DNA from: Phycisphaerae bacterium
GTDB lineage: Bacteria > Planctomycetota > Phycisphaerae > UBA1845
Direction: 5' to 3'
DNA length: 64,000 nucleotides
Assembly (NCBI GenBank): GCA_963675765.1
Contig: OY776568.1
Location: 2,313,407 to 2,377,406 of the forward strand
Made by a program: the position numbers and the translations under genes. Shown here piece by piece: positions 43,494 through 61,771 of the stretch. The notes under the pieces were generated by a model that saw only the letters and a list, made by a program, of their open reading frames with translations, was not told where the DNA came from and did no database searches. Each line of letters starts with the position of its first letter. Position 1 is the first letter of the stretch.

Positions 43494-43618
43494 GCCGCTC
43501 GCACCGTTGGCCGGATTCATACGCTGCCAAATCACCACCCGTCCGTCAGGTGGGAGAATAACCGTACCCGGTGCGTACACCGGATAAGAGGCCCTCACGT
43601 CAGAAAGGAAACGAAGCC

Positions 43619-44836: not shown

Positions 44837-44951
44837 ACCGGCTGCTCATCTACTGATCATCTGCGAGCCTTTACAACAAAAAGGCCGGCATCCGAGACTA
44901 CACTCGCATACCGGCCCCCATACTGTCATTGTCTTTGCCCGCAACCGCAGT

Positions 44952-46241
44952 CTAAGCCATTATCGCTGCCAAATCCGCCTTGGGATCACCTGTAGTCAAC
45001 CGCAAGTCAAACTTCTCCTGCAAAACCTTGAATACGTTCGGAGTAATGAATGCAGGCGGATTGGGCCCCAGCGAAATACCCTGAACATTCAAGTACAAAA
45101 GCGTCAAAAGCACCGCCACCGCCTTCTGCTCAAACCAGGAAATAACCAACGTGAGCGGCAGGTCGTTCACCGAACAATCGAATGCCTTGGACAACGCCAA
45201 CGCCACCTGAATCGCACCATATGCGTCGTTGCATTGCCCCATGTCCAACAATCGTGGCAACCCCAACAACTTGCCGTAATCATGACTACGAATTCTGTAT
45301 TTACCACATCCGAGAGTCAGAATAAACGAATCCGCCGGCGTTGCCTCCGCATACTCCGAAAAGTAGTTGCGACCCGGCTCCGCTCCATCACACCCGCCGA
45401 TTACAAAAAACCGGCTTATCTGGCCGTCCTTCACCGCCTGAACGATCGTGCCCGCCAGATCGAGAATGGCCTGCCTGTGAAAACCTACTTGAGATTCCCT
45501 TACCACATCATCCACCAGCGGCCGGCAACTTTTGGCCTTCGCGATCAACGGACCAAAATCGTTGTCTTTGAAACGATGACCGCCGGGCACAGCCGTCACG
45601 CGCGTAGTGAAAACCCTATCGGCATAACTGTCTTTCGGATGCAGAATACAGTTCGTCGTCGCCAGCACCGGCCCCAAAAACGCCTCAAACTCCTTCTTCT
45701 GATCCTGCCACGCTCCTCCGTAGTGCCCCACCAAGTGATTGTGTTTTCTCAACTCCGGATATCCGTGCGCCGGCAGCATCTCCCCGTGCGTGTAAACGTT
45801 TACCCCCGTACCCTTCGTCTGCTCCAGCAGATCACGCAGATCTATCAGATCGTGCCCCGTTACCAGAATGCCCGGCCCCGCCTGAGTACCCTCCTTAACC
45901 GTCACCGGAGAGGGCCTGCCGAACGTCTCCACATGCCCTTCATCCAACATCTCCATCACCCGCAGGTTTACCCGGCCACACTCCAATACCATCTCCAACA
46001 AACTTCCCATATCGAAGTTGACATTGGTCACCGTTGCAAAAAGCGCCTCCTCAACAAACGCGTCAACTTCCTCATCTACCTTGCCCAGCCGCCGAGCATG
46101 ATGTGCATACGCACACATCCCCTTCAAACCATAAAGGAGAGTCTCCTGCAAACTCTGCACATCCTCGTCCTTGCCGCATACACCTCGCGCCGTCTGACAT
46201 CCCGTCCCGCCGGCAGCCTGCTCACATTGATTACAGAACAT
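44952..46241 (-). CDS. hcp: Hybrid-cluster protein / hydroxylamine reductase, short (about 430 aa) form
   Basis: MFCNQCEQAAGGTGCQTARGVCGK is the N-terminal Cys cluster. HGEMLPAHGYPELRK, GGCDGA and DMGQCNDAY motifs are present. It lacks about 120 aa present in the E. coli protein after the N-terminal domain. Confidence 0.9.
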   Translation of the reverse strand: MFCNQCEQAAGGTGCQTARGVCGKDEDVQSLQETLLYGLKGMCAYAHHARRLGKVDEEVDAFVEEALFATVTNVNFDMGSLLEMVLECGRVNLRVMEMLDEGHVETFGRPSPVTVKEGTQAGPGILVTGHDLIDLRDLLEQTKGTGVNVYTHGEMLPAHGYPELRKHNHLVGHYGGAWQDQKKEFEAFLGPVLATTNCILHPKDSYADRVFTTRVTAVPGGHRFKDNDFGPLIAKAKSCRPLVDDVVRESQVGFHRQAILDLAGTIVQAVKDGQISRFFVIGGCDGAEPGRNYFSEYAEATPADSFILTLGCGKYRIRSHDYGKLLGLPRLLDMGQCNDAYGAIQVALALSKAFDCSVNDLPLTLVISWFEQKAVAVLLTLLYLNVQGISLGPNPPAFITPNVFKVLQEKFDLRLTTGDPKADLAAIMA

Positions 46242-46398
46242 GTTCCCTACGCTCCTGATTCGTTAATGGTCTCACCTGGCGATCGACAGCCCTTCGTCCG
46301 ACAATTCCGGTCCCTCAGCAACAATGCCCCGAGAACCATCATCGGGCCGCCGGTAGCGCCACTAAACATCAGTCTCCCACACAGAAACCACCCAGTCA

Positions 46399-46412
46399 TT
46401 GATCTGGATCAA
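46399..46412. promoter_or_regulatory. FNR/CRP-family binding site upstream of hcp
   Basis: TTGATCTGGATCAA is a perfect TTGAT-N4-ATCAA palindrome. Its centre is about 164 bp upstream of the hcp ATG, in the hcp / coiled-coil divergent region. Confidence 0.6.
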
Positions 46413-46540
46413 CTGCAGTCAATGGTTAGGTGTCAACGCCCTCTATTACAGCCATCCATCGCAGACTCTTTCCCCGCTCTCCTGCAACCGACACGCCTGC
46501 ACCGATGTATCAACAGACAGCGGACATCCTTCGCCGGAAG

Positions 46541-46562
46541 ATGTTCACTCGCAGATGAACAT
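46541..46562. promoter_or_regulatory. Inverted repeat just upstream of the coiled-coil gene
   Basis: ATGTTCA (46541-46547), 8 nt, then TGAACAT (46556-46562). It ends 36 nt before ATG 46599. Confidence 0.35.
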
Positions 46563-46598
46563 GTCAGTCCACTAGACGCCCTATTCAAGGAGACCATC

Positions 46599-47741
46599 AT
46601 GCCACACTACGTATTCTCCACTGTGACTGTCCTGGCAGTATTGACCGTTGGCAACCCTGCCCCCGCCAATGCCGGAGACAACAATGCACCACAACCACGA
46701 CAGTACCAGGCAAACATCAGCCATGAGGCCAAGATGGCCATCAGCAACCTCGACGACCTCGCCGAATTCTATGAAGCCCGACAGCGCTGGGATGAAATGG
46801 AACAGACACTGCAACGCCGTGCCGACTTACCCCTAATCCTCGCCCAGGTCCGCCTCATCGCCGAAAACCAGGACGCTCAGTCTGCACTCCTCGCGTACTA
46901 CCGACTAACCAACCAGCCTGCTCGCGAGTTGGAAATAACCGTCACCCAACTCGACGACCAAATCAGAGCTTCAAGAAAGAGGCTTGCCCAACTGCACGTC
47001 AACCTTGCCGAAACCCAAGCACAGCTCGAACAGATGGAAAACCACCACAAGGAACTCAGCCAGCAACGCCACCACCTTCAACAGCAACTTGAGCATCTTC
47101 ACCATCAACAACTGCTGACACAGCATCAAACCTTCGAGGAGCGACTGGACCAACTGCGCCTGAACATCGAAAGCTTCGAGAAGCAGAAAGAGCTCACCGA
47201 ACAAGCCATAGCAGACACGAACACAACCGAGAACGAACGTCACCAACTTCAGTTACTCTCCGAACGGCTCTCCAACAAACTGCATCTCCTGCATTCTGAA
47301 CTTCGCCACACCCAACTTGAGGCCAACGAGCACAAAAGTCGCGTCGACGAAGTTGACCGGGCCAAGAAACTCCATAAGGCCGAAACACTGCAACACTCTC
47401 TCCAGAATTGGCAAACAACACAGGAAGACCTGCTCCACGAAGTGACACTGCTGCTTGACCGTATCGAGGAAATCAATCAACACTGTAAGTCCGCCTCCCA
47501 GGCTATGGAAAAACTACGACCTCAAAAGCATACGCCAAAGCATCCTGGAAACTCGCTTCAAACGCGCGACCCACAGACAAGCAAGCGATCATCGGCGGCA
47601 ATCACGCCCAAACCCGGCAACCGCAAACACCCTGCCCACAAAGCAAAGACACCGAAAAGCAAGAAGAGCCCCAGAAGGAAAACGAACGAAAAACAGCCTG
47701 AGAAACCTGAACCTCCGGTCTCCTTGCAGGGAACTATCTGA
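46599..47741 (+). CDS. Secreted coiled-coil protein, Gln/His-rich, with a Lys/Pro-rich basic tail
   Basis: It is embedded in the 3' end of the artefactual 1244-aa track ORF. ATG 46599 is preceded by AAGGAG. The signal peptide is MPHYVFSTVTVLAVLTVGNPAPANA. Long heptad-like Q/H/L/E stretches (HHLQQQLEHLHHQQLL). The tail is ...KHPAHKAKTPKSKKSPRRKTNEK. Confidence 0.65.
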   Translation: MPHYVFSTVTVLAVLTVGNPAPANAGDNNAPQPRQYQANISHEAKMAISNLDDLAEFYEARQRWDEMEQTLQRRADLPLILAQVRLIAENQDAQSALLAYYRLTNQPARELEITVTQLDDQIRASRKRLAQLHVNLAETQAQLEQMENHHKELSQQRHHLQQQLEHLHHQQLLTQHQTFEERLDQLRLNIESFEKQKELTEQAIADTNTTENERHQLQLLSERLSNKLHLLHSELRHTQLEANEHKSRVDEVDRAKKLHKAETLQHSLQNWQTTQEDLLHEVTLLLDRIEEINQHCKSASQAMEKLRPQKHTPKHPGNSLQTRDPQTSKRSSAAITPKPGNRKHPAHKAKTPKSKKSPRRKTNEKQPEKPEPPVSLQGTI

Positions 47742-47972
47742 CTATTCAAAGGTCACTGAAATCGCCTCTGACAAACTCGTAAACTGCGAACATTTGAAAG
47801 GAATCCAACACACTCGTTAGAATCAACAATCAATCAACAGCGACCCCATGGCCCACGATTGACATCATCCTGGCGCCACGGTTGAATTAGAGTGAAAGAC
47901 ATGGCAAACGGCCCGGCGGCCCCAACAACCGCCGTCGGCTGCTTCTGAAAATTGGCACAGTGAAAGCATCAA

Positions 47973-50948
47973 ATGGACGAGTGGCACGACAGCCCGGCAC
48001 AAGATGACCTGAACGTATATTTTTGTGGTTTCCACAATCTTATGCCGTACAGGGTGCAACACATACTCCTTGTATCAAGCCTCTACGAGTCCTTTATCCT
48101 CGAAGGCGAAGGGCTGCTTACCGAACTCATTACCAGCGAGTACCTCGATCTCAACCTCAGCCATGCTCCCCGCGTCACTCGCGTCTCCACCGCCCAGGAA
48201 GCGCTCGAGTTCATCGGCAAGGAACCGGTCGATCTCGTCATCACCATGACCCGCCTCGGCGGCCAACCGGTAACTGATTTCGCCGAGGCAGTCAAATGGC
48301 GAAAACCCGATCTCCCCGTAGTCGTTCTCGCCGATGAACCTCGCGCCATTCCTCCCGACGATGCCTTGCGCGACTGCGAACATATCGATCGTGCCTTTGT
48401 CTGGAATGGGGACGCTAAAATCCTGCTGGCTATCATCAAGTATGTCGAAGACCAAGTGAACGCCGAACACGATACGCGCATCGGCAATGTTCGTGTTCTC
48501 ATCGTTGTGGAAAATTCAGTTCGCTTCTACTCCACATACCTTCCACTCATCTATACCGAATTGATGAAACTGACACAGTCCCTCATAGCCGAAGGTGTCA
48601 ATCTCACTCATCGACTCCTGCGCATGCGCGCGCGTCCACGAGTACTGCTGGCTGAAACCTATGAAGAGGCCTGGACTCTCTACACCAAGTTCAGTGAGAA
48701 TCTGCTTGGCGTAATATCCGATATACGTTTTCCCAAAGAAGGCAAGCTGGACGCCGGCGCCGGCCTGGAGTTCACCCGCCGCGTACGCGAAAACGAACCC
48801 TACCTCCCCGTTTTGCTCCAATCATCTGACCCCGGCTACTCTCAAGCCGCCGCCCAGCTCAATGCATGCTTCCTCCATAAAAACTCCCGACACCTTCTGC
48901 GCCAACTCAGTGAGTTCATTCTCGGCAACCTCGGCTTCGGGGACTTCATCTTCAAACTGCCAGAAGGCCATGAAGTCGGCCGGGCAAAGGATCTCCGCGA
49001 ACTGGAGGAAAGGCTCCACAGTATTCCAGCAGCATCCCTCAAGTTCCACGCAGCACACAACCACTTCAGCAACTGGCTCATGGCCAGAACTGAATTCGAA
49101 CTCGCTGCTCGGCTGCGACCGGCAAAAGTAAGCGACTTCTCCGATATTGAGGAAATGCGAACATACCTCATTCAGGCCCTCGCCGAGTTTCGTGAAAAAA
49201 CCCAAACAGGTGTCATAACGGACTTCTCCCCTCAGAAGTTCGATGTGACCAGCAGCTTCACCCGCATCGGCGGAGGATCCCTCGGTGGAAAAGCCCGCGG
49301 ACTGGCCTTCGTCAACGCCCTCATTCGTCGCCATAACCTGAGCAACCGGTTCGACGATGTCCGCATATTCGTCCCCAAGACGGCCACCTTGGGAACCGAC
49401 GTCTTCGATGAATTCCTCGATCATAACAACCTCCGCAGCTTCGTTGCCGAAGACGTTCCCGACGAACGCGTCTCCCGTATGCTTCTCGCCGCGAAACTGC
49501 CCCGCACTATCTACGCAGACCTCACCGCCTTCCTCAGACTTGTGCAATACCCCCTCGCCGTTCGCTCCAGCGGCCTCCTCGAAGACTCCCACGGCCAGCC
49601 CTTCGCCGGCATCTACTCAACCCATATGCTGCCCAATAACCACCCCGACATCTCCGTCCGCCTGGAGCAGCTTTGTGATGCCATCAAACGGGTCTATGCT
49701 TCCACATTCTTCCAGGCCTCCAAACGCTATATGGAAGCGACCGGACGCAACCCCGAAGAAGAGAAGATGGCCGTCATTCTCCAAGAGATTGTCGGCAGCC
49801 AATACGGAACACGCTTTTACCCCACCTTCTCCGGCGTCGCCCGCTCTTACAACTTCTACCCCAGCGGTGACATCGACCCCCATGAAGGTGTCGCCAGCGT
49901 AGCTCTCGGCCTTGGGAAAATGGTTGTCGAAGGAGGACAAAGCCTAACCTTCTCCCCCGCTCACCCCGAAGTCCTCCCCCAGTTCGCCACAACCGAAGAT
50001 ATGTTGGCTAATTCCCAACGGCAGTTTTTTGCCCTCGACACCGGCCACCCCGAGGTCTACCCTACCGCTGACGCCGAAGCCAACCTCACTCTCCACGATC
50101 TCGATATAGCCGAAGCCGACGGAACACTGACCCCCATCGGCTCCGTATTCGACCCCGACAACGACGCCGTGTACGATAGCCTCCGCCGCAACGGCCCGCG
50201 ACTCGTAACCTTCTGCCACATACTAAAGGCCAACCTCTTCCCCCTATCAGAAATCCTCCAAATCCTCCTGCAAATCGGAGAAGAAGGTACCGCCGGCCCC
50301 GTAGAAATCGAATTCGCAGTCAATATGAACACCAAACCGATGGAGTTTGGGTTTCTCCAAATTCGCCCAATCATCCTCAACGAGGAATATGATGATGTAC
50401 GAGTCGATGAAATCAAACAGAAAGACGCCATCTGCCTCAGCGGCAAGGCCCTGGGCAACGGCCAGATCCACGACATCCGCGACCTTGTTTATGTAAAACC
50501 ACAATCATTCGACTCCAGCTACACAAGAGAAATCGCCGCTGAAATCGGTCAACTCAACAACCACCTCGCATCCAAACAGCGACCCTTCGCCATAATAGGC
50601 CCCGGCCGCTGGGGCACCGCTGATCGCTGGCTGGGTATTCCTGTAACCTGGACTCAGATCTCCGGCGCCCGCGTGATTGTGGAAACCACATTGGAAAACT
50701 TCATGGTCACCCCTTCTCAGGGAACCCACTTCTTCCAGAACCTTACGTCCCTGGGAGTCGGATACTTGACCGTTGACCCCAATCTCGAACAGGGAAAAAT
50801 AGACTGGGACTGGCTGGACAAAAAGCCCGCAGAAAGTGAGACCGGCTTCATCCGTCACCTGCGCTTCAACCATGAACTCGAAATAAGACTCGACGGCCGA
50901 CGGCAGAAAGGAGCCATCCTCAAACCCCATCGAAGAAAACGAGACTAA
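47973..50948 (+). CDS. Two receiver-like domains fused to a PEP/pyruvate-binding (PPDK_N, ATP-grasp) domain protein
   Basis: 991 aa. The first receiver-like domain lacks the acceptor Asp (DLVITMTRLGG). The second has it (LLGVISDIRFPKEG). GGGSLGGKARGLAF and AVRSSGLLEDS are typical of the PEP-synthase/PPDK N-terminal nucleotide-binding domain. No phosphohistidine swivel or PEP-utilising C-domain was recognised. Confidence 0.75.
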   Translation: MDEWHDSPAQDDLNVYFCGFHNLMPYRVQHILLVSSLYESFILEGEGLLTELITSEYLDLNLSHAPRVTRVSTAQEALEFIGKEPVDLVITMTRLGGQPVTDFAEAVKWRKPDLPVVVLADEPRAIPPDDALRDCEHIDRAFVWNGDAKILLAIIKYVEDQVNAEHDTRIGNVRVLIVVENSVRFYSTYLPLIYTELMKLTQSLIAEGVNLTHRLLRMRARPRVLLAETYEEAWTLYTKFSENLLGVISDIRFPKEGKLDAGAGLEFTRRVRENEPYLPVLLQSSDPGYSQAAAQLNACFLHKNSRHLLRQLSEFILGNLGFGDFIFKLPEGHEVGRAKDLRELEERLHSIPAASLKFHAAHNHFSNWLMARTEFELAARLRPAKVSDFSDIEEMRTYLIQALAEFREKTQTGVITDFSPQKFDVTSSFTRIGGGSLGGKARGLAFVNALIRRHNLSNRFDDVRIFVPKTATLGTDVFDEFLDHNNLRSFVAEDVPDERVSRMLLAAKLPRTIYADLTAFLRLVQYPLAVRSSGLLEDSHGQPFAGIYSTHMLPNNHPDISVRLEQLCDAIKRVYASTFFQASKRYMEATGRNPEEEKMAVILQEIVGSQYGTRFYPTFSGVARSYNFYPSGDIDPHEGVASVALGLGKMVVEGGQSLTFSPAHPEVLPQFATTEDMLANSQRQFFALDTGHPEVYPTADAEANLTLHDLDIAEADGTLTPIGSVFDPDNDAVYDSLRRNGPRLVTFCHILKANLFPLSEILQILLQIGEEGTAGPVEIEFAVNMNTKPMEFGFLQIRPIILNEEYDDVRVDEIKQKDAICLSGKALGNGQIHDIRDLVYVKPQSFDSSYTREIAAEIGQLNNHLASKQRPFAIIGPGRWGTADRWLGIPVTWTQISGARVIVETTLENFMVTPSQGTHFFQNLTSLGVGYLTVDPNLEQGKIDWDWLDKKPAESETGFIRHLRFNHELEIRLDGRRQKGAILKPHRRKRD

Positions 50949-52189
50949 CGCACTTGCCCGTCACCATGCACTACATACCGACTGGTGGTCAACTCTTCCA
51001 ACCCCATCGGACCGTAGGCATGGATCTTCGATGTGCTGATACCGATTTCCGCACCAAGACCTAATTGAAAACCATCATTAAACCGCGACGAGGCATTCAC
51101 CAATACACACGACGAGCCCACTCGCCTTATGAACTCAGCTTGGCGTCCACCATCGTCACTGACAATCACATCAGTATGATTCGAACCGTACTTGGCAATA
51201 TGTCCAATGGCGGCATCTATCCCATCAACAACCTTCATGGCCACTATGAGATCGAGAAACTCCCTTCCCCAATCATCATCAGCGGCAGCCACAGCATGCG
51301 GAACAACACTGCATACCGCGTCATCGCCCCTAATCTCCACGCCGGCATCAAGATATCGCTGCCCGAGAACCGGCAAGAACCTCTCGGCGACGGACTTATG
51401 AACCAGAACACACTCGGCCGAGTTGCAGGTAGCGGGCGCCGAAGTCTTGGCCGTAACCGCTATCTCAGCTGCCTTGGCGGGATCGGCGAATTCATCGATG
51501 TATATGTGGCACACGCCATGGAAATGCTGCACCATGGGAATCCGAGAATGTTGATGGACAAACTCGATCAAGGCAGTGCCCCCCCTGGGAATAACCAAGT
51601 CGATATACTCATTCAAACCCAGCAGATATCGCAACTCCTCCCTGTCCGAGGACACCATCACCTCGACCGCCCCCTCGGTCACACCGCCGGCCTTCAAGGC
51701 ATCCTTGGCAATCAGCGCCAGCAGCGCGTTTGACTTATCCGCCTCCTTCCCTCCTTTGAGGAAACAAGCATTGCCAGCTTTGAAGCACAAGCCAAACGCG
51801 TCAATAGTCACATTGGGGCGAGCCTCATAAATCATCGCCACTACGCCCAGCGGAATACGCACCTTCTGCACATGGAGGCCCGACTCACAGCGATAATCCT
51901 TCACCACCGCACCAACGGGATCAGGGAGCCGTGAGATGATGCGCAATCCTTCAGCCATCTGATTCAATCCGGCTTCCGTTATCTGGAGCCGCTTAAGCTT
52001 TGGCGAAGGTAGGCCGCTGCCCTTGGCAATCTGCATATCCACAGCATTAGCGGCAAGTACTTCGCTTTTCCTTTTTACAAGCGAATCAGCCAAGCCACAC
52101 AGTATTGTGTTTTTACTATCAGTATCCAGATAGGCCAGCTCGCGTGAAGCCTCGCGAGCCGCTATCGCTTTTTCCTTAATATCACGCAT
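50945..52189 (-). CDS. proA: Gamma-glutamyl phosphate reductase
   Basis: ATG 52189 gives MRDIKEKAIAAREASRELA.... Aldehyde-dehydrogenase-type core (IPRGG, NSAECVLVH). It is downstream of proB. The longer track ORF start is rejected. Confidence 0.9.
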   Translation of the reverse strand: MRDIKEKAIAAREASRELAYLDTDSKNTILCGLADSLVKRKSEVLAANAVDMQIAKGSGLPSPKLKRLQITEAGLNQMAEGLRIISRLPDPVGAVVKDYRCESGLHVQKVRIPLGVVAMIYEARPNVTIDAFGLCFKAGNACFLKGGKEADKSNALLALIAKDALKAGGVTEGAVEVMVSSDREELRYLLGLNEYIDLVIPRGGTALIEFVHQHSRIPMVQHFHGVCHIYIDEFADPAKAAEIAVTAKTSAPATCNSAECVLVHKSVAERFLPVLGQRYLDAGVEIRGDDAVCSVVPHAVAAADDDWGREFLDLIVAMKVVDGIDAAIGHIAKYGSNHTDVIVSDDGGRQAEFIRRVGSSCVLVNASSRFNDGFQLGLGAEIGISTSKIHAYGPMGLEELTTSRYVVHGDGQVR

Positions 52190-52226
52190 AATCTTCACTC
52201 TTGCACGAAATCTGGTTTTTACCAAT

Positions 52227-53363
52227 TCAGTCTCGCAACACCACAAGATCATCGCGATGAACAACCTCTTCCATGTACCTATATCCCAGCAACAAGGCAA
52301 TCTCGGCACACTTGTGGCCGCGGATTCTATCCACTTCATCCGAGGCGTAAGAGGCGAGCCCTCGGGCAATCAGTTGCCCGTTGTCCTGGCAGACCTTGAC
52401 AACAGCCCCTGCGGAGAACCTGCCATCGACGGCCAATATTCCCGACGGCAGCAGGCTGGCATTTCGTCTCACGATAGCTTCGGAGGCTCCGGAATCAACG
52501 ATAAGGGTCCCCTCTGGCCGAGCAACTGATGCAATCCACCGTCGCCGGGCATCGAGCTTACTAACGCGGGGGGCAAAGAGTGTCCCCACGGGCCGGCCTG
52601 CGAAAATGTCGCTCAAGACTCCGTTTCGCCTTCCACCGGCGATAATCGTCGGCACGCCGGCATCACCGGCCAAGACAGCAGCGTCAACTTTTGTCTTCAT
52701 TCCGCCGATGCCGGTTTCACTTTTAGCTGCCTGAATATGGCCATGTGCACTTTCAGTGGCCAACACCATTCGGATCAGCTCGCCGTGTGGTCCACCGGAG
52801 CGTAGCCCTTCGACATCAGTAAGCATTATAAGGAGATCGGCCGAGATTAGCGTTGTTACCAGAGCAGAAAGGTGGTCGTTATCGCCGAGTCTGATTTCGT
52901 CGTAGGAAACGCTATCGTTCTCATTAACTACTGGAACGATACTTCTAGCCAGAAGAGTTTGCAGGGTATGCCGGGCATTGAGATAGCGTCCGCGGCTATT
53001 GATGTCGTCAGCGGTGAGTAGCACCTGAGCCACGTGGATTCCGGCTCGTGCAAACACGGTGGACCAGGCATTCATAAGGGTCTGCTGTCCGATGGCAGCG
53101 GCGGCCTGCCGATCAACTATAGTACGAGGCATGCGCTGCAATCCCATGGCCGCAAGTCCGGAGGCAACTGCGCCGCTGGACACAATGACAACATCCCGGC
53201 CAGCGTTTTTGAGGGCAATCACTTCTTTTCCTAGTCGCGTAATGGCCCGCTTATTCAGTTGCCCTGCTTTTGTCAGGACTGCGCTACCGATTTTGATCAC
53301 TATCAATCGTGAGCGTTCGACATACTGTCTGTTGCAGGCTTTCCTTTCGTTTTCCAATGCCAA
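52227..53363 (-). CDS. proB: Glutamate 5-kinase with a PUA domain
   Basis: 378 aa. IVIKIGSAVLT, VIVSSGAV and VNENDSV are amino-acid-kinase motifs. C-terminal PUA-like domain. TTG start at 53363. Confidence 0.9.
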   Translation of the reverse strand: MALENERKACNRQYVERSRLIVIKIGSAVLTKAGQLNKRAITRLGKEVIALKNAGRDVVIVSSGAVASGLAAMGLQRMPRTIVDRQAAAAIGQQTLMNAWSTVFARAGIHVAQVLLTADDINSRGRYLNARHTLQTLLARSIVPVVNENDSVSYDEIRLGDNDHLSALVTTLISADLLIMLTDVEGLRSGGPHGELIRMVLATESAHGHIQAAKSETGIGGMKTKVDAAVLAGDAGVPTIIAGGRRNGVLSDIFAGRPVGTLFAPRVSKLDARRRWIASVARPEGTLIVDSGASEAIVRRNASLLPSGILAVDGRFSAGAVVKVCQDNGQLIARGLASYASDEVDRIRGHKCAEIALLLGYRYMEEVVHRDDLVVLRD

Positions 53364-53513
53364 TAAACTCCTGCAAAGGCCAATTAAACCAGTAAAGGGT
53401 CATCTTGTTTTTCACCAAAACTCTGCAATCGTTGCTTGAAAACTGAGTGCGGCACGGTTAGTTTGAGGATCCTGTCTCACATTGGCATAATAAGTCCGTA
53501 GGAGGATCATCTC

Positions 53514-54518
53514 ATGGACGCGTCAAGCGTTTCCTCACTGACAACGGTCGCCCAGCATATCATCGAACAACAGCGAAATCATCCCACAGCTTCCGGGCAG
53601 TTTAGTTGGCTGCTCAGCGGCGTCACGCTGGCGACGAAGATCATCGAGTCTTACGTCCGTCGCGCTGGTATTGCGGATGTATTGGGAGCCACAACGAGCA
53701 CGAATGTGCAAGGCGAACAAGTGCAGAAGCTGGATCAGATTGCCAACGAGACAGTTAAGCGCTGCCTGGGGTATAGGGGAAACGTCGGTATTTTGGTATC
53801 GGAGGAGGAGGACGAGCCAAAGGTAATCAAGGAGGCAGGAAGGGAAGGGAAGTACATTGTGCTTTTCGATCCCCTCGACGGATCAAGTAACATTGATGTC
53901 AACGTTTCGGTAGGGACGATATTCTCGATCTTGCAGGTTCGCGACGATCTTGACGAAGATGCTTCAGCCGAGGACCACACGCTTCAGCCGGGGATTAACC
54001 AATTGGCTGCAGGTTACGTCGTTTACGGCAGCAGTACAGTATTGGCTTACACAACCGGCGACGGAGTGCACATGTTCACTCTCAACCCGGAAATAGGGGC
54101 ATTTGTGCTACATCAAGAGCGCGTTACGATGCCACCAGAGGGAAAGATGTACAGCATCAACGAGGCCTACAAAGCGAGTTTTCCCAAGGGGGTACGTGAT
54201 TATCTTGATTGGGCAAAACAAGACGATTATTCGCTGCGATACATCGGATCACTGGTCGCCGATTTTCACCGAACACTGCTTCGCGGCGGGGTTTTTCTAT
54301 ATCCCCCCACAGCCAAGCAGCCGGAGGGCAAGTTGAGACTGCTTTACGAAGCCAACCCCATGGCTTTTCTTGCAGAGCAAGCGGGCGGAGCAGCGACGGA
54401 CGGCAAGGTACGCCTAATGGAAAAACAGCCCACAAAGTTGCACGAGCGGACGCCACTGATCATAGGCAGCAGGAAGGAAGTATCCCGAGTCCATGATTTC
54501 CTGAACGGCGACAAATGA
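53514..54518 (+). CDS. fbp: Fructose-1,6-bisphosphatase class 1
   Basis: 334 aa. AGGAGG RBS. Motifs are FDPLDGSSNIDVNVSVGTIFSI, LRYIGSLVADFHRTL and GGVFLYP. Confidence 0.9.
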   Translation: MDASSVSSLTTVAQHIIEQQRNHPTASGQFSWLLSGVTLATKIIESYVRRAGIADVLGATTSTNVQGEQVQKLDQIANETVKRCLGYRGNVGILVSEEEDEPKVIKEAGREGKYIVLFDPLDGSSNIDVNVSVGTIFSILQVRDDLDEDASAEDHTLQPGINQLAAGYVVYGSSTVLAYTTGDGVHMFTLNPEIGAFVLHQERVTMPPEGKMYSINEAYKASFPKGVRDYLDWAKQDDYSLRYIGSLVADFHRTLLRGGVFLYPPTAKQPEGKLRLLYEANPMAFLAEQAGGAATDGKVRLMEKQPTKLHERTPLIIGSRKEVSRVHDFLNGDK

Positions 54519-54527
54519 CGACATCAA

Positions 54528-56141
54528 TCAAATAGGAACCTGCTCGCTCCCAACGAAGCTGCCAACGGGCCGATCACCACATCGCAATTCATCGCGCATT
54601 GCAAGCCAAACGGAAAGTTGATCACGTCCTATTGGATTATTTCCAAGGCACGCGATTTCGATAGCAGAGGCGGCGTTTCCCAAATACGCAGCACCGACAA
54701 GCGAGGCTCCGGCAGCCAGAGACATAGATGCCACCGTAAGCATAGCATCACCACAGCCAAGTCTATCAAGGCATGAATTAGCAAATGAGGGAAAGTGTTC
54801 GCTTAGCAGCCGGTCACCCCACTCTTCAGATCGAGGGTCCTGAGAGGGGCGTTCAAAGACAACCAATCCCCGTTTTCCCAATGTGCAAAGTATGTGACGA
54901 GCCTGATTTTGATTGATAAGTTCGTAGGCTACTGACGACAGTCCAGACTCAAAGTCATGCAGAGTAGTTCTCAACTCTCTCTCGGTGGGGCAAAGGAGAT
55001 CTACATGGCGGTAGTTCAAGAGGTTACCACGGGAGCCACTCACATCACCCGCGAGGACGGGCACATTAGCTCGCAGACACGGCAGCACTCTAGAGAGAAG
55101 AGAGGCATTCACGGCGCCGTAACCGAAATCGCAGATGATGGCGACGTCAACATCACGGGACAAGCGTTCGAGGATAGCGGACACGTTCTTCTCTGCGTGT
55201 GAATCGAGAGGAGTGTTTTCGCCGTGCTCCACTTTGAAGATCTTGTTTTCCTCAACGAGGTAGCGGGTCTTGTGGACTAGATGTGGTCTGGTTTTTACTG
55301 CAGCCAGTTCGACACCTTCACTTGCCAGGATTGAATTTACTCTGGCGCTGCACTGATCCCGAGCCACATTACTGACCAGAGTCACATGGGCTCCCATTGC
55401 CGCTGCGTGGCGAGCCACTATTGCCGCCCCACCCAGGTACTCCTGCTCGCTAAGTTGTAGAAGTGAGAGCATTGGCGATTCTGAAGCGACATCAACCGCA
55501 TCGCACGAGACATAGCGATCAACAATGACGTCACCCAGGACTGCCACCTTCATACCGCGGAACCTGCTGACGACATTGAGGAGAGAGGCCTGCTCAAGAT
55601 CGTGTCGTTGGCAGATGAGTTTCAGTCGCTGGGCGGCCAGTTGCTTGTCTCGTGGGAGCGAAGCTATCAACTCACTGGAACTGAAGACAACATCGCCACT
55701 GGAAAAGATCACGCGGCCGCCGTAAGCCTCGACCTCTGAGCGTTCGGCGAGGAACCTGGGATCGTCAGATGTTTCGTACTCTCGGCCTTTGACATAGACG
55801 TCGGGTTTGACGGCACGGAGCAGGTCCACTGCTGTCGGAGCGCGGTCAACGCAAACGTAGTCGACAAACTCAAGAGCGGCGAGTGATTCAGCTCTCAATT
55901 CCTCTGGAATATAGGGTCGCTGATCCCCCTTGTTGATCTGCGAATCACCTGTGACAGTTACAACCAAAATGTCGCCCTGGCGGCTAGCGAATTCCAAGTA
56001 TCGCAAATGTCCGGGATGAACAATATCGAAGCAGCCATGGCACTGCACCACGGTCAATCCGTCTTGCCGTCGCTCCTCCAGAACAGTAAGTAAAGCATTG
56101 CGTTGTAAGATTTTGCGGATATGGGTAGCGGAATCCTTCAT
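54528..56141 (-). CDS. Bifunctional cytidylyl/adenylyltransferase-like (N-terminal) + PfkB-family sugar kinase (C-terminal); HldE-like but in reversed domain order
   Basis: 537 aa. The N-terminal GCFDIVHPGHLRYLEFA is the HxGH nucleotidyltransferase motif. The C-terminal ribokinase-like domain ends with DRLGCGDAM (DTxGAGD-type). Confidence 0.75.
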   Translation of the reverse strand: MKDSATHIRKILQRNALLTVLEERRQDGLTVVQCHGCFDIVHPGHLRYLEFASRQGDILVVTVTGDSQINKGDQRPYIPEELRAESLAALEFVDYVCVDRAPTAVDLLRAVKPDVYVKGREYETSDDPRFLAERSEVEAYGGRVIFSSGDVVFSSSELIASLPRDKQLAAQRLKLICQRHDLEQASLLNVVSRFRGMKVAVLGDVIVDRYVSCDAVDVASESPMLSLLQLSEQEYLGGAAIVARHAAAMGAHVTLVSNVARDQCSARVNSILASEGVELAAVKTRPHLVHKTRYLVEENKIFKVEHGENTPLDSHAEKNVSAILERLSRDVDVAIICDFGYGAVNASLLSRVLPCLRANVPVLAGDVSGSRGNLLNYRHVDLLCPTERELRTTLHDFESGLSSVAYELINQNQARHILCTLGKRGLVVFERPSQDPRSEEWGDRLLSEHFPSFANSCLDRLGCGDAMLTVASMSLAAGASLVGAAYLGNAASAIEIACLGNNPIGRDQLSVWLAMRDELRCGDRPVGSFVGSEQVPI

Positions 56142-56168
56142 CGCCGACTGTTCCCCTGCAGGATGGCC

Positions 56169-56257
56169 TAGAGCAAGCTCTATTCCAGTGAAGGACTACA
56201 GCCCTGGTCTCTCCAGGCTTCAATGATAGTCCACGCCGCCAACCCCTCGAGAACGCC
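56169..56257 (-). repeat. About-90-bp structured intergenic repeat, copy H (reverse)
   Basis: The + strand reads tagagcaagctctattccagtgaaggactacagccctggtctctccaggc...gagaacgcc. It lies 27 nt upstream of the kinase-fusion gene start. Confidence 0.75.
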
Positions 56258-56482
56258 ATAGGCATACCAATACTGGCCTATGCAGTTTTATCGGTCCTGG
56301 GCCGCAATCGCTGCAGAGCAACTCTCGGCTGAGGGACTTTGGTTGCTTTTGGCCCTCGAATACCTACCATGATCCGATTCGTTACACAATGGTGTGCCGA
56401 TTGGAAGGATCTAATAGCGGTAGTAATACGTACTGATTGAGGCATTCATCCAGCCGTTCAGAGAATTACGTCTACCTGTCAC

Positions 56483-56573
56483 TAGAGCAAGCTCTATACG
56501 AGTGTAGCGTCAGGGCCCCGGCTTATTCCGGTGGGTTTCATGTTTGACGCTGCATTTGGGCGAGTTAGGCACT
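56483..56573 (-). repeat. About-90-bp structured intergenic repeat, copy I (reverse)
   Basis: The + strand reads tagagcaagctctatacgagtgtagcgtcagggccccggcttattccggtgggtttcatgtttgacgctgcatttgggcgagttaggcact. It lies 36 nt upstream of the first LptF/G-family gene. Confidence 0.9.
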
Positions 56574-56609
56574 GAGGCAAGGTGACAGCTTGGAGACTCG
56601 CCACAGGCC

Positions 56610-58238
56610 ATGCTTTGGACCCTGCAGAAATATATTTTTCGTGAGATGGGTAAGTCATTCCTGCTCACCGCCGTCGGTCTGATAGTGGTCTTGGGGCTAG
56701 GCGGAGGGGTGATGAACATGATCGAGCTGGAGGGTGTAACAGCCCTGCAGATCCTTCGTCTAATGGGACTGGTTTTGCCAGTAGCCGCCTCTCTGACACT
56801 GCCGATCGCAGCCTTGTACTCAGCCACGGTCACGTATGGTCGGCTCAGTGCGGACAACGAGTTCGTAGCTTGCAGGAGCGGGGGCATTAACCTGCACATT
56901 CTGTTGCTACCGACTTTGGTAATAAGTCTGTTCTCTGCATTGTGTTCTTTCTTTTGCATCAACTTCGTGATCCCTGGCATGATCATGAACATAGACCGGT
57001 TTGTCACGACAGACATGCCTCGGTTCATCAAGCAGCAGTTGGCAGCACCTGGCCGGCTAGCTCTGAAGGGGGACAACTACCGCATTTACGCAGACAAGAG
57101 CGAGATTCGGCAGGAAGCGACTGACTCTGGTGACGCGACGGAGCTGCACGTCGAGGGCGTCGCGTTTGTTGAGATGGACGACGGCAAATGGACGCGTTTC
57201 GGGACGGCTGAGTCAATTGAGATAGCATTCACTTCTCCGGGAGACGTTCCGACGATCGCGGCCAATATGTATGAGTTGAGCATCTACGATGCCAAGACTG
57301 GTCGCTACTCTGATTTTCACCACGAATCGATCGGCCAGTATCCGATTCCGGAGAAGTTTCCCCTGGAAGTCAAATGGCTGGTTTTGGGCGACCTGCTACG
57401 CTATCGGCAGCAGCCATCCTTGTTCCCAGAGATTGACCAGAGTTTAGTATTTCTACGAGCAGCGGTAGCGCGAGCTATCTTTTATGCGGAGATCAAGAGG
57501 CAATTTCTCGCATCGGGAGAGGTGGTGTTTGGGGATAAGCAAACACAGTTCCGAGTGCGGTCGCGCACTCTGAGTCCGGACCCTCAGGACAACCGGCCAA
57601 GGTTCGAGGAGAATCTAGAGATTGTGGAAACACGCTCTGATGGGCTAATCAGGACGATAACAGCGGACTCCGCGTTTATGAAGGTAGCCGAGTCCAAAGC
57701 GCAGCAAGCAGTGTGCGTATCGCTGGAGGCGAACGGCAATGTTGAGATAACCACAAACAGGTTTCCTGAGGCAAGAACCAAGCGCAACCACGAAAAGTTG
57801 ACTCCGGTCAAGCTGCCGGATGAAGTCGTGCACCAGGCATTATCGTTTCCGACGGACAGACTCCTGGACTCCAGCGGAAAGTCATTGGGATTGGGAACAC
57901 TAGTAGACAAAAGGAAGGCAGCCCTTCTGGAGGACATTGCGAAGTTAACCAGAGACATCACAGGAGAGTTGCATTCAAGGTTGGCGATAAGCGTGAGTGT
58001 TTTCGTGCTGGTGATTCTCGGGGCCGCATTGGCGATTGTCCTGCGAGGTTCGCAGGTTCTAGTTGCATTTGGAATCAGTTTCATCCCATCACTGTTCGTA
58101 ATCAGCACGATCATCATGGGGAAACAGTTGATCGACAATCCAGAGACGCTCACGACGGGCATAAGTGTGGTATGGCTGGGAATCGTGGTTACAGGGATAA
58201 TAGACTTGGTTATTCTAACCAAGGCTTTGCGGCGATAG
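56610..58238 (+). CDS. LptF/LptG-family (YjgP/YjgQ) permease, long form
   Basis: 542 aa. MLWTLQKYIFREMGKSFLLTAVGLIVVLGLG is the typical family N-terminus. Six TM segments with an enlarged periplasmic domain. Confidence 0.8.
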   Translation: MLWTLQKYIFREMGKSFLLTAVGLIVVLGLGGGVMNMIELEGVTALQILRLMGLVLPVAASLTLPIAALYSATVTYGRLSADNEFVACRSGGINLHILLLPTLVISLFSALCSFFCINFVIPGMIMNIDRFVTTDMPRFIKQQLAAPGRLALKGDNYRIYADKSEIRQEATDSGDATELHVEGVAFVEMDDGKWTRFGTAESIEIAFTSPGDVPTIAANMYELSIYDAKTGRYSDFHHESIGQYPIPEKFPLEVKWLVLGDLLRYRQQPSLFPEIDQSLVFLRAAVARAIFYAEIKRQFLASGEVVFGDKQTQFRVRSRTLSPDPQDNRPRFEENLEIVETRSDGLIRTITADSAFMKVAESKAQQAVCVSLEANGNVEITTNRFPEARTKRNHEKLTPVKLPDEVVHQALSFPTDRLLDSSGKSLGLGTLVDKRKAALLEDIAKLTRDITGELHSRLAISVSVFVLVILGAALAIVLRGSQVLVAFGISFIPSLFVISTIIMGKQLIDNPETLTTGISVVWLGIVVTGIIDLVILTKALRR

Positions 58239-58266
58239 GGAGCCGGCCAAGGCGATTAGAAGCTCC

Positions 58267-59379
58267 ATGGGCATTATAGATAGACACATAATCAAGGGTT
58301 TGCTGGCCAACTACCTCATTGCGATCGGCGTAATGATCAGCTTGTACATAGTGCTCGATCTGTTTTTCAACATGGACGAGTTTACGGAGAGCGTTTCGGG
58401 CACGACGGATGTGATGCTCGATATTGTGAGTTTCTACGGCGCTCGCGTTTTTCTCTATTTCGCCCAGCTGTCTGGAGTAATAACGCTTTTTGCATGTCTA
58501 ATCACGCTGGCCCGAATGCGACAGCAGCGAGAGCTTATCGCAGTGCTTGCGTCAGGCGTAAGCCTTTACAGAGTAGCTGCGCCAGTTATGGCTTTTGGGT
58601 TGGCGACCACTGCCATGTGGTATGTGGATACAGAGTTGATCATTCCTTCGATAGCGCACAAACTTGCCAGACGGCACGATGATGCCCGAGGTCTCAAAAC
58701 CTATGGAGTTTGGTTTCTTCAAGACCGCGATGATGCCCTTCTCTCCGCACAGCAGTATGTACCTGGCGAAGGAACGATCAAACGGCTGTTGGTGATAAAG
58801 CGAAACGAAACCGGGCACTTATCCAGCATCATTGAAGCGGAGCGAGCGACATGGGAACCGTCTACAGACAATAGTGAGTTCCTGGGGACATGGAAGCTCG
58901 AACGGGGTACAGAGAAGACCAGAATTGAAGAAACAGGAGACAGCCTCGCGCCGCAGGGAGACTTCGTGAGCAGCCTAATCGCCAGTTATCCAAGCAATCT
59001 TGATCCGAAGACGATCGAAATGCGACAGTCAACCGGATGGATACGTTATCTGAGTTCCATGCAATTGAAGGAGTTGGCGAACCGGGCTGAGGGATACACA
59101 TTGGAGCAAATCCAAGATGCCCGTCATTCTCGTTTCACGACTCCCATTGTGAGCCTGATCATGCTCGCATTGGGTTTACCATTTGTTTTGGACCGGATAC
59201 CTGCAGGAGTCGTTGCTGCAGGCAGCAAGAGTTTGTTAGTGTGCGGTTCGTGTTTTCTAGTAGCGTTTGTTTCACAAAGCATTGGCAGCCCAACGCATCT
59301 TTCCGCGTTGCCGGCGTGGCTTCCGGTTATCATCTTCGCACCCATAACAGCTGTTCTGTTCGATCGAATTCGCACATAG
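58267..59379 (+). CDS. LptF/LptG-family (YjgP/YjgQ) permease
   Basis: 370 aa. The N-terminus is MGIIDRHIIKGLLANYLIAIGVMISLYIVLDLF. Adjacent paralog of the previous gene. Confidence 0.8.
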   Translation: MGIIDRHIIKGLLANYLIAIGVMISLYIVLDLFFNMDEFTESVSGTTDVMLDIVSFYGARVFLYFAQLSGVITLFACLITLARMRQQRELIAVLASGVSLYRVAAPVMAFGLATTAMWYVDTELIIPSIAHKLARRHDDARGLKTYGVWFLQDRDDALLSAQQYVPGEGTIKRLLVIKRNETGHLSSIIEAERATWEPSTDNSEFLGTWKLERGTEKTRIEETGDSLAPQGDFVSSLIASYPSNLDPKTIEMRQSTGWIRYLSSMQLKELANRAEGYTLEQIQDARHSRFTTPIVSLIMLALGLPFVLDRIPAGVVAAGSKSLLVCGSCFLVAFVSQSIGSPTHLSALPAWLPVIIFAPITAVLFDRIRT

Positions 59380-59594
59380 AGTGGCCATGAATCTCGGTCA
59401 ACACAGACTCCCTTTTTTCGTTGTCTGATGTAGAGGTCCAGCGGGAAGCGATTTGCCCGGAATGAGGCACATGGTCTGTCCTCTGGTGAGCATGGAAGGC
59501 AAAAGAAAGCCGGACGCCGATTTCCTTCCTCAGGTCCCTTGGCAGCAATCGGACTCTGCCGAGGGAGATCGGACGTCGATCTCGGGGCACGTTA

Positions 59595-59685
59595 TGTAGC
59601 AAGCTCTATCCAAGTGCAGCGGCTGAACGTCCGTCTTCCCCGGTAGATTCCGGTGGTTTGACGCCCCGTTAGGATTAGCAGCGTT
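59595..59685 (-). repeat. About-90-bp structured intergenic repeat, copy J (reverse)
   Basis: The + strand reads tgtagcaagctctatccaagtgcagcggctgaacgtccgtcttccccggtagattccggtggtttgacgccccgttaggattagcagcgtt. It lies between the second LptF/G-family gene and tdk. Confidence 0.9.
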
Positions 59686-59736
59686 ATGTGAGATAGTTGC
59701 TTCACATTCGATGCTCCGGCTGGCACAATCTGGGCC

Positions 59737-60345
59737 ATGAATAGCAATACAGAGGGCAATGGAGTCCACACGGCGGTTTCGCGTGGCAGCGTCGAATTGA
59801 TCTGCGGATGCATGTTCAGCGGAAAAACTACTGCTTTGCTGCAGCGGTTAGAACAGGACGAGGCGAGATGCATTCTAGTAATCAAGCACACGAAGGATGC
59901 TCGATACTCGCGCACGCGAATAATGACGCACGACGGTCATGGCTGTGACGCGGTGTCGGCAGCGGAGGCAGAGGACATCATCCAGCAGACATCTGAGTCG
60001 ACGGAGGTTGTGGCCATCGATGAGGGCCACTTCTACGACGAGAAATTGCCGGAGGTTGTCGACAGGCTGGCAAATGCGGGTAAGCGTGTGCTGATCACCA
60101 CTCTGGATATGGACATGTGGGGCAGACCATTTCCAATAATCCAGGAGATTGAGCGGTTGGCCACACGTGTAAGTCGGCAATTGGCTAGGTGCGCGGTGTG
60201 TGGCCAACCAGGAACACACACTCAGAGAAGAACGCCGATTGTTAATCGCAACCTTGTTGGTGGAAGTGATGATTTTGAACCCAGGTGTGGGACATGTTGG
60301 AGGCCGCCACCCGAGTCCCCCATTGATAGTAATGAAATGGCATAA
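59737..60345 (+). CDS. tdk: Thymidine kinase
   Basis: 202 aa. P-loop GCMFSGKTTALL, IDEGHF, and a C-terminal Zn ribbon CAVCG...CGTC. Confidence 0.9.
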   Translation: MNSNTEGNGVHTAVSRGSVELICGCMFSGKTTALLQRLEQDEARCILVIKHTKDARYSRTRIMTHDGHGCDAVSAAEAEDIIQQTSESTEVVAIDEGHFYDEKLPEVVDRLANAGKRVLITTLDMDMWGRPFPIIQEIERLATRVSRQLARCAVCGQPGTHTQRRTPIVNRNLVGGSDDFEPRCGTCWRPPPESPIDSNEMA

Positions 60346-60372
60346 GCTGCGCCGCAGGCGGCTTTCCGCTCT

Positions 60373-60464
60373 GAGAAATAAGCTCCATTCAGGTATAGCC
60401 TCTGAAGCCTGGCTTTCCCCAGTGGATGGTCGACGCTTGACGCCACGTTTGGATTAACAACGCC
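60373..60464 (-). repeat. About-90-bp structured intergenic repeat, copy K (reverse)
   Basis: The + strand reads gagaaataagctccattcaggtatagcctctgaagcctggctttccccagtggatggtcgacgcttgacgccacgtttggattaacaacgcc. It begins 27 nt after the tdk stop. Confidence 0.8.
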
Positions 60465-60685
60465 ATCTGCCCTCTCTTCAGACGTAGAGGAGAAGGTGTC
60501 TGACAGAGGAGTACGTGGAAGAAATCGGTGTTGACATGAGTGTCAGTCAACGGCTACTGAGCAAGCCTACTTTGAATGTAACCTTTGTAGTAGTCTTTTC
60601 TTGGGCGCATTCTCACTGTCTGACACCACCATTGAAGAAGTGACCTTCCACGAGAAGGATGATCGAAGCGATGTGACAGGGCGAG

Positions 60686-61771
60686 TCATGGCTGGCAAAG
60701 CTGAATGGCCTCGCGAACAAGACTGTCAGACACTTTGTCGGTAATCACTGTCTCACCCAAGCCATTAAGAAGAACCCACAGCCTCTTGCCGGCCTTCACC
60801 TTCTTATCCCCATAGGTAAGCTGATGAACTTCTTCCAGATCGAAAGGGTGGGGTGCCTTAATAGGTAAAGCGAATTGCTGAAGGAGTGAGCGGATGCGCC
60901 GCAGTTGTGGTTCAGCAAGAAGCCCCTCTTCGCGGGAGATGAAGGCCGCCGCGGCCATGCCGATGGAGACTGCTTCCCCGTGTCTTAGTCCATAGCTGAA
61001 CCAGCTTTCGATGGCATGTCCTATGGTATGGCCAAAATTGAGAATAGCTCTGAGTCCATGCTCTTTTTCATCCTGCTCAACAACGTTTGCCTTAATTCGC
61101 ATGTTCCGCTCGACGAGTTCCGCCATTGTGGCTGGTTCAACGGCGAGGATGGAGGAGGCCAGGCGCTCATGCCAATCGAGGAAGTCAGAGTCGGCTATGA
61201 GCGCATGCTTGACTGACTCTGCGAGTCCCGAGGAGATATCTCTGGCGGGCAAGGTTCTGAGACATTGAGGGTCCACGACGATGAGTCTGGCGTGATGGAA
61301 TGCCCCGATAAGGTTCTTTCCAGAGGTATGGTTAACGGCCGTTTTGCCGCCAATGGCTGCATCCACATCAGCTTCGAGGGTTGTGGGGCAGGTGATGTAA
61401 TCGATTCCGCGCATCCAGGTAGCGGCCGCAAATCCTGTAAGGTCGCTCACGACACCTCCTCCCAGTGCTAGTAGCAGACCATCGCGAGGGCAGCGAGCGT
61501 CGGCAAGGCAGTCGTATATCCTGGTCAATTCGTTGATGTTCTTCGATTCGTCGCCCGGCTCAATAGTGTGGAGAAGTGCATGCACGCCGGCGTTCTGAAG
61601 GCTGGCAGCAACCTGATCGAAGTACATGGAGGCGACGGTCGTATCGGAGCAAATGACTACAACAGGTGGGGTACCAATACTCTGAACCCACTTTCCAATG
61701 TGCTCAAGAACTCCGCCTTCGATGACTATCTCGCAAGCGCCGCGCGAAATATCAAGATTGAATTGCGTCAC
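60686..61771 (-). CDS. aroB: 3-dehydroquinate synthase
   Basis: 361 aa. Motifs are LGGGVVSDLTGFAAATWMRGI, GGKTAVN and NFGHTIGHAIE. GTG start. Confidence 0.9.
   Translation of the reverse strand: MTQFNLDISRGACEIVIEGGVLEHIGKWVQSIGTPPVVVICSDTTVASMYFDQVAASLQNAGVHALLHTIEPGDESKNINELTRIYDCLADARCPRDGLLLALGGGVVSDLTGFAAATWMRGIDYITCPTTLEADVDAAIGGKTAVNHTSGKNLIGAFHHARLIVVDPQCLRTLPARDISSGLAESVKHALIADSDFLDWHERLASSILAVEPATMAELVERNMRIKANVVEQDEKEHGLRAILNFGHTIGHAIESWFSYGLRHGEAVSIGMAAAAFISREEGLLAEPQLRRIRSLLQQFALPIKAPHPFDLEEVHQLTYGDKKVKAGKRLWVLLNGLGETVITDKVSDSLVREAIQLCQP

Follow-up and report, generated by a model that had tools for sequence, protein, structure and literature searches.

The proBA locus and its change in strand composition

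The DNA analyzed here, 64,000 nucleotides of contig OY776568.1 from a Phycisphaerae bacterium and referred to below as the window, carries the genes for glutamate 5-kinase (proB) and glutamate-5-semialdehyde dehydrogenase (proA). Both genes are full length and, being co-oriented and 37 bp apart, form a typical proBA operon. At the junction between them, the composition of the top strand changes from C-rich to G-rich. This switch was confirmed to be real and sharp, with the polarity of a replication origin, and it is unique to this lineage. The genes on its right side, proB-fbp-hldE-lptF-lptG-tdk-aroB-folC (at least 11.7 kb, running past the window end), stand beside proA in the ancestral order and orientation, and their synonymous sites bear the imprint of replication in the direction opposite to that of the left block. 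The switch is more likely to be a recombination seam than the replication origin of the chromosome.

Skew was measured on the top strand, and GC3 denotes the third codon position, expressed in the top-strand sense. Genes were taken as long open reading frames (ORFs), and the relevant ones were confirmed with NCBIfam or Pfam. The GC content of the window is ∼53%. From 1 to 52 kb, the GC skew of the whole sequence is -0.13 to -0.48 nearly throughout. The exceptions are a patch with an insertion sequence (IS) at 9-13 kb, where it comes down to -0.02, and the region of 19-23 kb (-0.06 to -0.09), which contains a long + strand gene that counteracts the C-richness. At 52.5-56.5 kb the skew is ∼0, and between 56.5 kb and 64 kb it is +0.07 to +0.11. 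The right regime extends at least 476 nt past the window end, where the tail of another contig of the same organism (L001) has a skew of +0.07 and carries, after folC, a methyltransferase gene that is also found in a relative (L088).

Third codon positions showed the same sign on both gene strands. In the left regime the GC3 skew is -0.34 for + genes (G3 1188, C3 2424) and -0.39 for - genes (G3 1403, C3 3205), whereas in the right regime it is +0.12 (653 versus 515) and +0.21 (428 versus 279), respectively. All eight right genes have a GC3 skew above zero (pooled G1081 versus C794, z ∼6.6). Given this agreement between + and - genes within each regime, the asymmetry is of the replication type, and a cause in transcription or codon usage was rejected. 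A terminus was rejected on the polarity of the switch. The AT3 skew of the left regime is +0.19 in + genes and +0.38 in - genes.

The initial annotation had described a C- and A-rich left side and a G- and T-rich right side. The former description is borne out and the right side is indeed G-rich, but there A and T are about equal. Its hand counts of third-position G and C and of 60-nt lines were reproduced, save for a count of 28 rather than 29 C at 49501. The local minimum of cumulative skew that it had named as a check was found at 53594, within the window only. The switch that it had placed near proB/fbp is a real boundary lying 1.2 kb farther to the left, as described below.

Table 1 Coordinates of the features discussed in the text
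Feature	Position	Strand	Evidence or remark
Left regime	1..52296	.	Top strand C/A-rich on either gene strand; contains rnf operon, apbE, sulfatase-TPR genes, ComEC, pfk, gdhA, hcp, PPDK_N-response-regulator gene, proA
Hybrid-cluster (prismane) protein gene	44952-46241	-	5.5e-129
proA, glutamate-5-semialdehyde dehydrogenase	50945..52189	-	NF001221, 1.5e-161; last left-regime gene
DnaA-box-like motif ATATCCACA	52035..52043	+	8/9 matches, within proA codons
DnaA-box-like motif GTATCCAGA	52122..52130	+	7/9 matches, within proA codons
Seam (composition change-point interval)	52190..52862	.	proB-proA spacer and 3' half of proB
proB-proA spacer, 37 bp, locally AT-rich	52190..52226	.	Sequence
proB, glutamate 5-kinase with PUA domain, intact	52227..53363	-	TIGR01027, residues 21-374 of 378; first right-regime gene
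Right regime	52297..64000	.	Top strand mildly G-rich in 8/8 genes; A ∼ T
DnaA-box-like motif CTATCCACT	52327..52335	+	7/9 matches, within proB 3' end
Divergent proB/fbp promoter region, 150 bp	53364..53513	.	38% GC over 100 nt at 53345
fbp, class 1 fructose-1,6-bisphosphatase	53514..54518	+	
hldE-like bifunctional gene (adenylyltransferase N-terminal, kinase C-terminal)	54528..56141	-	
lptF and lptG, LPS export permeases	56610..59379	+	
tdk, aroB, folC	59737..63686	tdk +, aroB -, folC +	Remainder of right block

The change point coincides with the proB-proA junction

The position of the switch was determined with a maximum-likelihood Bernoulli change-point model, using a 2-lnL support interval. 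With all sites, the change point falls at 52286-52862 (delta lnL of 187 over the whole window), and GC3 sites alone place it best at 52296 (delta lnL of 221). Here the proB stop (52227) adjoins the proA start (52189), 1.2 kb to the left of the proB/fbp intergenic region. The latter is the nearest true intergenic DNA, yet it lies ∼1.1 kb inside the right regime.

The two genes of the operon therefore fall on different sides of the boundary. For proA the GC3 skew is -0.22 in the top-strand sense and +0.22 on the coding strand, matching the orthologues of the related contigs L082-L085 (+0.09 to +0.28). For proB it is +0.16 in the top-strand sense and -0.16 on the coding strand, versus +0.15 to +0.26 in the same relatives. 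The AT3 shift coincides with the GC3 shift, with A3:T3 being 121:45 in proA and roughly 93:79 in proB. When skew was recomputed over aligned stretches of 26 loci with adjacent proB and proA, the coding-strand GC3 difference between proA and proB in the window (0.35) was the largest (sd of 0.11; maximum elsewhere of 0.24).

The spacer of 37 bp compares with 63, 27, and 29 bp in relatives and holds no inserted sequence. The 100-nt window at 52170 has 40% GC and is one of the eight lowest of the whole stretch. Between 51.5 and 57 kb, a repeat scan gave no significant repeat involving the junction, and promoter and terminator scans gave nothing at the seam. No IS or recombinase site was found at the junction, the sole transposase being that at 10.8-12.2 kb. 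Scans of the whole window for tRNAs and Rfam families gave no matches.

Syntenic relatives do not carry the switch

The nearest homologues of proB are labeled as Phycisphaerae (Planctomycetota), the closest being only 64% identical. The relatives used for comparison are Phycisphaerae metagenome contigs (L082, L083, L084, and L088, and the more distant L085 and L086); in a GTDB scan with proB, relatives had at most 48% identity among the matches listed. In L082, L083, and L084 the order of the genes is folC or tdk, lptG, lptF, hldE, fbp, proB, proA, further genes, the PPDK_N-response-regulator gene, (gdhA), and from folC or tdk via proA to the PPDK_N-response-regulator gene both order and orientation are identical to those of the window. 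L088 covers the right block plus 10 kb beyond folC, in the same order and orientation. The linkage of hldE-lptFG to fbp-proBA was seen only in the small clade formed by the window, L082-L084, and L088.

These four contigs show a uniform left-type skew over the whole locus, right-block orthologues included, and in L088 it holds for 10 kb further to the right. The comparison was made with the replication component of the skew, defined as the mean of + and - genes and split in this way from the coding component. For six shared orthologues, the relatives have a GC3 replication component of -0.21 to -0.32 and an AT3 replication component of +0.20 to +0.25, versus +0.15 and +0.07, respectively, in the window. 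The closest relative is L082 on either side of the seam.

Since the switch is absent in all syntenic relatives, and given the tree ((window, L082), (L083, L084)), it is derived in the lineage of the window and is not a conserved origin. Because the orientation of the block is unchanged with respect to these relatives, the reversed skew did not come from flipping the DNA, and many substitutions under a reversed strand bias are required. The same comparison refutes the edge of an un-ameliorated inversion, which the initial annotation had offered as its alternative, and takes the weight from the right-hand half of its argument from gene orientations diverging at this point, given that the orientations on the right side are the same in relatives without the switch.

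Other regimes exist among the more distant relatives. In L086, proBA lies uniformly in the opposite regime. L085 (66% GC) has a strong GC3 switch of terminus polarity (+0.2 to +0.7, then -0.02 to -0.42) at 12600-12750, which coincides with a synteny break directly after proA, at the opposite end of proA from the seam of the window. Donor lineages of the opposite regime therefore plausibly exist. In an ORF-based GC3 change-point scan of 42 related contigs (838 kb), strong sign switches, three in number, were confined to the more distant loci, and several weaker changes of regime were seen besides. The genomes of this group thus appear to be compositional mosaics, and with regime changes being this frequent, any one switch is unlikely a priori to be an origin.

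A set of 80 more distant hldE loci, retrieved from metagenomes with the hldE-like protein, was used only to estimate how common regime changes are; fbp, proB, and proA were found together beside hldE in none of the 80, and a proB match lay nearby in one. Asymmetric regime changes, e.g., from -0.27 to +0.05, were seen near hldE boundaries in the distant loci L143, L150, L151, L090, and L113 (near positions 10000-11600), and these may partly reflect a bias of the change-point test toward central positions.

The composition of the right block is not at equilibrium

The right block is not the mirror image of the left. Across the seam the GC3 replication component goes from -0.36 to +0.16, whereas the AT3 component weakens from +0.28 to about +0.05 and keeps its sign. 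Expressed as progress toward the mirror image, GC3 has covered ∼70% and AT3 ∼35-40% of the way, position 1 is only neutralized, and position 2 is unchanged; derived from the third-position counts, the purine skew is fully mirrored and the keto skew to ∼60%.

This lack of mirror symmetry, together with the gradient of position 3 > 1 > 2, indicates that the block is out of compositional equilibrium, and that the flip occurred a finite time ago, with the block still relaxing toward a G-rich state. The disequilibrium fits a replication direction reversed a finite time ago and not a long-standing origin. Replication of the block in both directions at equilibrium was rejected, since no single scaling factor accounts for the GC, AT, purine, and keto components together.

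Search for origin features at the seam

In bacteria, the change of skew at the chromosomal origin (oriC) appears as a minimum of cumulative GC skew, as used by Ori-Finder and DoriC. Typical traits of oriC are a cluster of TTATCCACA-like DnaA boxes and an AT-rich unwinding element, the latter located in some 200 bp or more of non-coding DNA. Linkage to dnaA, dnaN, parAB, gidAB, or rnpA is frequent, though not obligatory.

No perfect TTATCCACA-like box was found in the 64-kb window. Boxes with one mismatch number 16, versus 9.9 expected, and are scattered, and in a pre-specified scan at up to two mismatches the seam was not among the densest windows. At the change point there is no intergenic AT-rich unwinding element but only the 37-bp spacer between the intact proB and proA, and the lowest-GC stretches of the window lie at 43.1-43.3 kb. 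Visual reading of the seam sequence revealed neither DnaA-trio-like repeats nor a long AT-rich unwinding element. Among the genes called over 64 kb there is no dnaA, dnaN, parAB, gidAB, or rnpA, in agreement with the initial annotation, which had seen no convincing box cluster or unwinding element and no dnaA or dnaN. In L088, mnmE lies ∼1 kb beyond folC, and the skew there is uniform. The 468-bp hldE/lptF region (56142-56609) and the 150-bp proB/fbp region were rejected as origins, as both lie inside the right regime. At the position of the seam, the syntenic L082, L083, L084, and L088 have no skew switch.

Three same-strand TATCCA(C/G) cores, those of the DnaA-box-like motifs in Table 1, flank the AT-rich spacer and form the densest TATCCA cluster of the window. 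The corresponding p value of ∼1e-3 is post hoc and uncorrected. The motifs are missing from the L082-L084 junctions and owe their presence to amino acids and codons peculiar to this genome. We regard the cluster as a lead and draw no conclusion on function from it.

Possible origins of the switch

The reading that we tentatively favor is a homologous replacement, in which at least 12 kb gave way to DNA with a long history of replication in the opposite direction. Reverse-bias substitutions would have built up where the block was replicated the other way, either in a sister lineage or in a further copy or different orientation of it, and homologous exchange would then have linked the block to the resident proA. 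A crossover in the conserved proB 3' end or in the proB-proA spacer would leave no scar and keep the gene order. The best change point lies just upstream of the most conserved C-terminal stretch of proB (GYRY..E..HR.D), which is a plausible candidate for the crossover site, and a replacement with its crossover there would account for a seam without a scar within an operon, as well as for the block not being a mirror image. The abrupt compositional boundary that a recombination tract would leave is present at the seam. Related Phycisphaerae are also found together in ENA assemblies that follow one contig-naming scheme and have adjacent accession numbers (L001, L082, and L088), which speaks for this reading.

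Several observations weigh against such a replacement. No donor lineage is among the sampled contigs, the nearest relative having only 64% proB identity, and DNAs that differ so far as to have opposite skew are expected to recombine homologously only rarely. Two events are needed (the flip in the donor and the transfer), versus one for a change of fork direction in situ. The second boundary of the tract is not seen up to ∼64.5 kb, and the TATCCA cluster at the seam would be a coincidence. Furthermore, the block does not look foreign. The symmetrized tetranucleotide distance of right to left is 0.13-0.20, versus 0.135-0.186 within the left, GC and GC3 are alike on both sides of the seam, left and right genes give the same protein tree, ((window, L082), (L083, L084)), and the three-point ratios of the window branch to that of L082 are comparable (1.05-1.37 left, 0.58-1.46 right). 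With tetranucleotides, GC, GC3, closest relative, and branch lengths all matching the left side, the sequence points to a right block that is native or from an unsampled sister lineage, and not from outside the clade. Because the nearest genome is only 60-80% identical at the protein level, a donor from a sister lineage would be invisible to the tree comparison. The right block has no mobility genes and holds only core metabolic and lipopolysaccharide genes.

This native look is what would be expected under the main rival reading, in which replication forks diverge here, from a young, lineage-specific, and non-canonical initiation site at the proB-proA spacer, possibly a second origin. The DnaA-box-like motifs would have arisen by point substitutions in the flanking codons, next to the 37-bp AT-rich spacer, more than one origin may operate, and the right block would have been relaxing since then to the mirror-image composition. 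Such a site would explain the origin polarity and the sharp step, and a single in situ event would account for both the non-equilibrium state and the gradient of position 3 > 1 > 2, which makes it the most parsimonious explanation in number of events. The TATCCA(C/G) cluster at 52035, 52122, and 52327, around the spot with 40% GC and absent from the junctions of three relatives, also speaks for it. We nevertheless consider it unlikely. A spacer of 37 bp between intact genes leaves no intergenic room, and neither DnaA trios nor a long unwinding element was seen there. The boxes match at only eight, seven, and seven of nine positions, none of them being perfect, and were noticed post hoc in a region that the pre-specified scan had not ranked. 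Replication genes are not found nearby, the switch is absent in all relatives, and the AT skew is not reversed. To our knowledge, naturally arising ectopic origins have not been established in wild-type bacterial chromosomes.

A reversed, non-equilibrium skew in native-looking DNA with kept synteny would also result from a long-lasting inversion of the block with one breakpoint at proB/proA, partial amelioration, and then exact re-inversion, in a group where rearrangements and regime changes are frequent. This is improbable, given that the same two breakpoints would have to be used twice, that no inverted repeat, IS, or recombinase site is found at the junction, and that the first inversion would split the proBA operon.

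Still less probable is an assembly chimera, in which the metagenomic contig of 5,446,402 bp passes from one genome into a related one where the two are homologous. The DNA comes from a metagenome assembly, and the ENA assemblies of several related Phycisphaerae have neighboring accession numbers. The only other contig of the same organism, L001 (11.7 kb, low quality, from another sample, 99.5% identical with many indels), begins at window position 53009, 0.2-0.7 kb to the right of the seam, so that this one independent contig covers the right block only and does not span the seam. A start at this place is compatible with chance (∼12%), however, and a join would need near-identical sequence, whereas a large share of the synonymous sites must differ between genomes of opposite skew. 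There is no break in composition, GC3, or phylogeny at the seam, and both proB and proA read through intact. The start of L001 could also mark a branch of the assembly graph at the boundary of a polymorphic tract.

Least probable of all is what the initial annotation had proposed, namely, a classical DnaA-dependent oriC at 52-54.5 kb or else the edge of a single un-ameliorated inversion. The polarity of the switch and the excess of minus-strand genes on the left speak for these readings, and the boundary is abrupt and independent of gene strand. Against an oriC, the change point falls in an intact operon without a DnaA-box cluster, unwinding element, or intergenic space, and no replication gene was found in the 64 kb. 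The closest true intergenic regions (53364-53513 and 56142-56609) belong to the right regime, the two arms do not mirror each other, and the four syntenic relatives show no switch at this place. Against an inversion edge, the two blocks are oriented to each other in these uniform-skew genomes just as in the window.

Comparison with known systems

The switch resembles that at a bacterial oriC in its polarity, its abruptness, and its independence of gene strand. It differs in the lack of an intergenic oriC, canonical box cluster, unwinding element, or linked replication genes at the seam, in arms that are not mirror images, and in a position not common to syntenic relatives. Chromosomes with an extra origin, such as those of Escherichia coli engineered to carry oriC and oriZ or the naturally fused chromosomes of Vibrio cholerae, would likewise have an additional switch of origin polarity away from dnaA. 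In those cases, there is a recognizable transplanted or plasmid-like origin, whereas no inserted sequence is present here.

A change in the sign of the skew is mentioned as the criterion for “gene inversions” in PMC11237797. As in a segment inversion, a multigene block of the window has a skew sign opposite to that of its neighbor, and regime changes are frequent in related contigs. Unlike in such an inversion, the block is not inverted relative to its neighbor when compared with four relatives, and an inversion inferred from skew sign alone would be wrong here. Homologous replacement and acquired islands, as generally known, share with the locus a sharp boundary in or near a conserved gene, the lack of a scar, the kept gene order, and a composition differing from the flank. 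The locus departs from them in having no mobility genes, no atypical GC or tetranucleotides, and no phylogenetic discordance detectable at the available resolution; only the strand asymmetry differs. Literature searches gave no precedent for origins in Phycisphaerae or for a reversal of skew without rearrangement.

Changes of skew sign are routinely read as origins, termini, or inversions, the last also in genome-wide “gene inversion” surveys and in the quality control of metagenome-assembled genomes. The proBA locus is a clean case that fits none of the three, with a switch of origin polarity within an operon that is intact and syntenic. If the switch is a recombination seam, a replacement in the core genome between lineages that is otherwise invisible can be revealed by strand asymmetry, and inversion calls based only on skew can mislead. 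If forks diverge here instead, this would be the natural birth of a de novo origin or multi-origin replication in a bacterium, which would be substantial for replication biology and for Planctomycetota, with their already atypical cell cycle.

Other features of the window

The patch of near-zero skew at 9100-12300 holds a gene for an IS-type transposase (DUF772 and DDE_Tnp_1; 10773-12221, +) and a PEP-CTERM ORF (9846-10571, +). Within the C-rich left regime, this patch looks like a recent insertion.

The divergent hldE/lptF intergenic region has 468 bp, versus 277-310 bp in relatives. It contains two copies, at 56168 and 56482 and thus 314 bp apart, of a 26-nt repeat with a palindromic core (CTAGAGCAAGCTCTAT). 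The two copies may serve as a pair of operators or may bound a small inserted element. The HldE-like protein has the reverse domain order of E. coli HldE, with the adenylyltransferase at residues 21-160 and the kinase at residues 192-509, and this order is kept in relatives.

A 1,244-aa ORF on the + strand (44007-47741), rich in L, R, P, T, S, and Q and without a Pfam match, was rejected as spurious; long false ORFs of this kind arise because the top strand is C/A-rich. The hybrid-cluster protein gene lies within the same coordinates on the other strand. Its match begins at position 160 of the profile, and no N-terminal part was seen upstream of it. Around this gene, ∼3 kb (42.4-44.9 and 46.3-47.9 kb) is unannotated.

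The gene adjoining proA (47973-50948) encodes a 991-aa protein with a weak N-terminal response-regulator-like region and a PEP-utilizing (PPDK_N-type) domain. It adjoins proA in all close relatives, and a second PPDK_N paralogue, of 763 aa, is present in L083 and L084.

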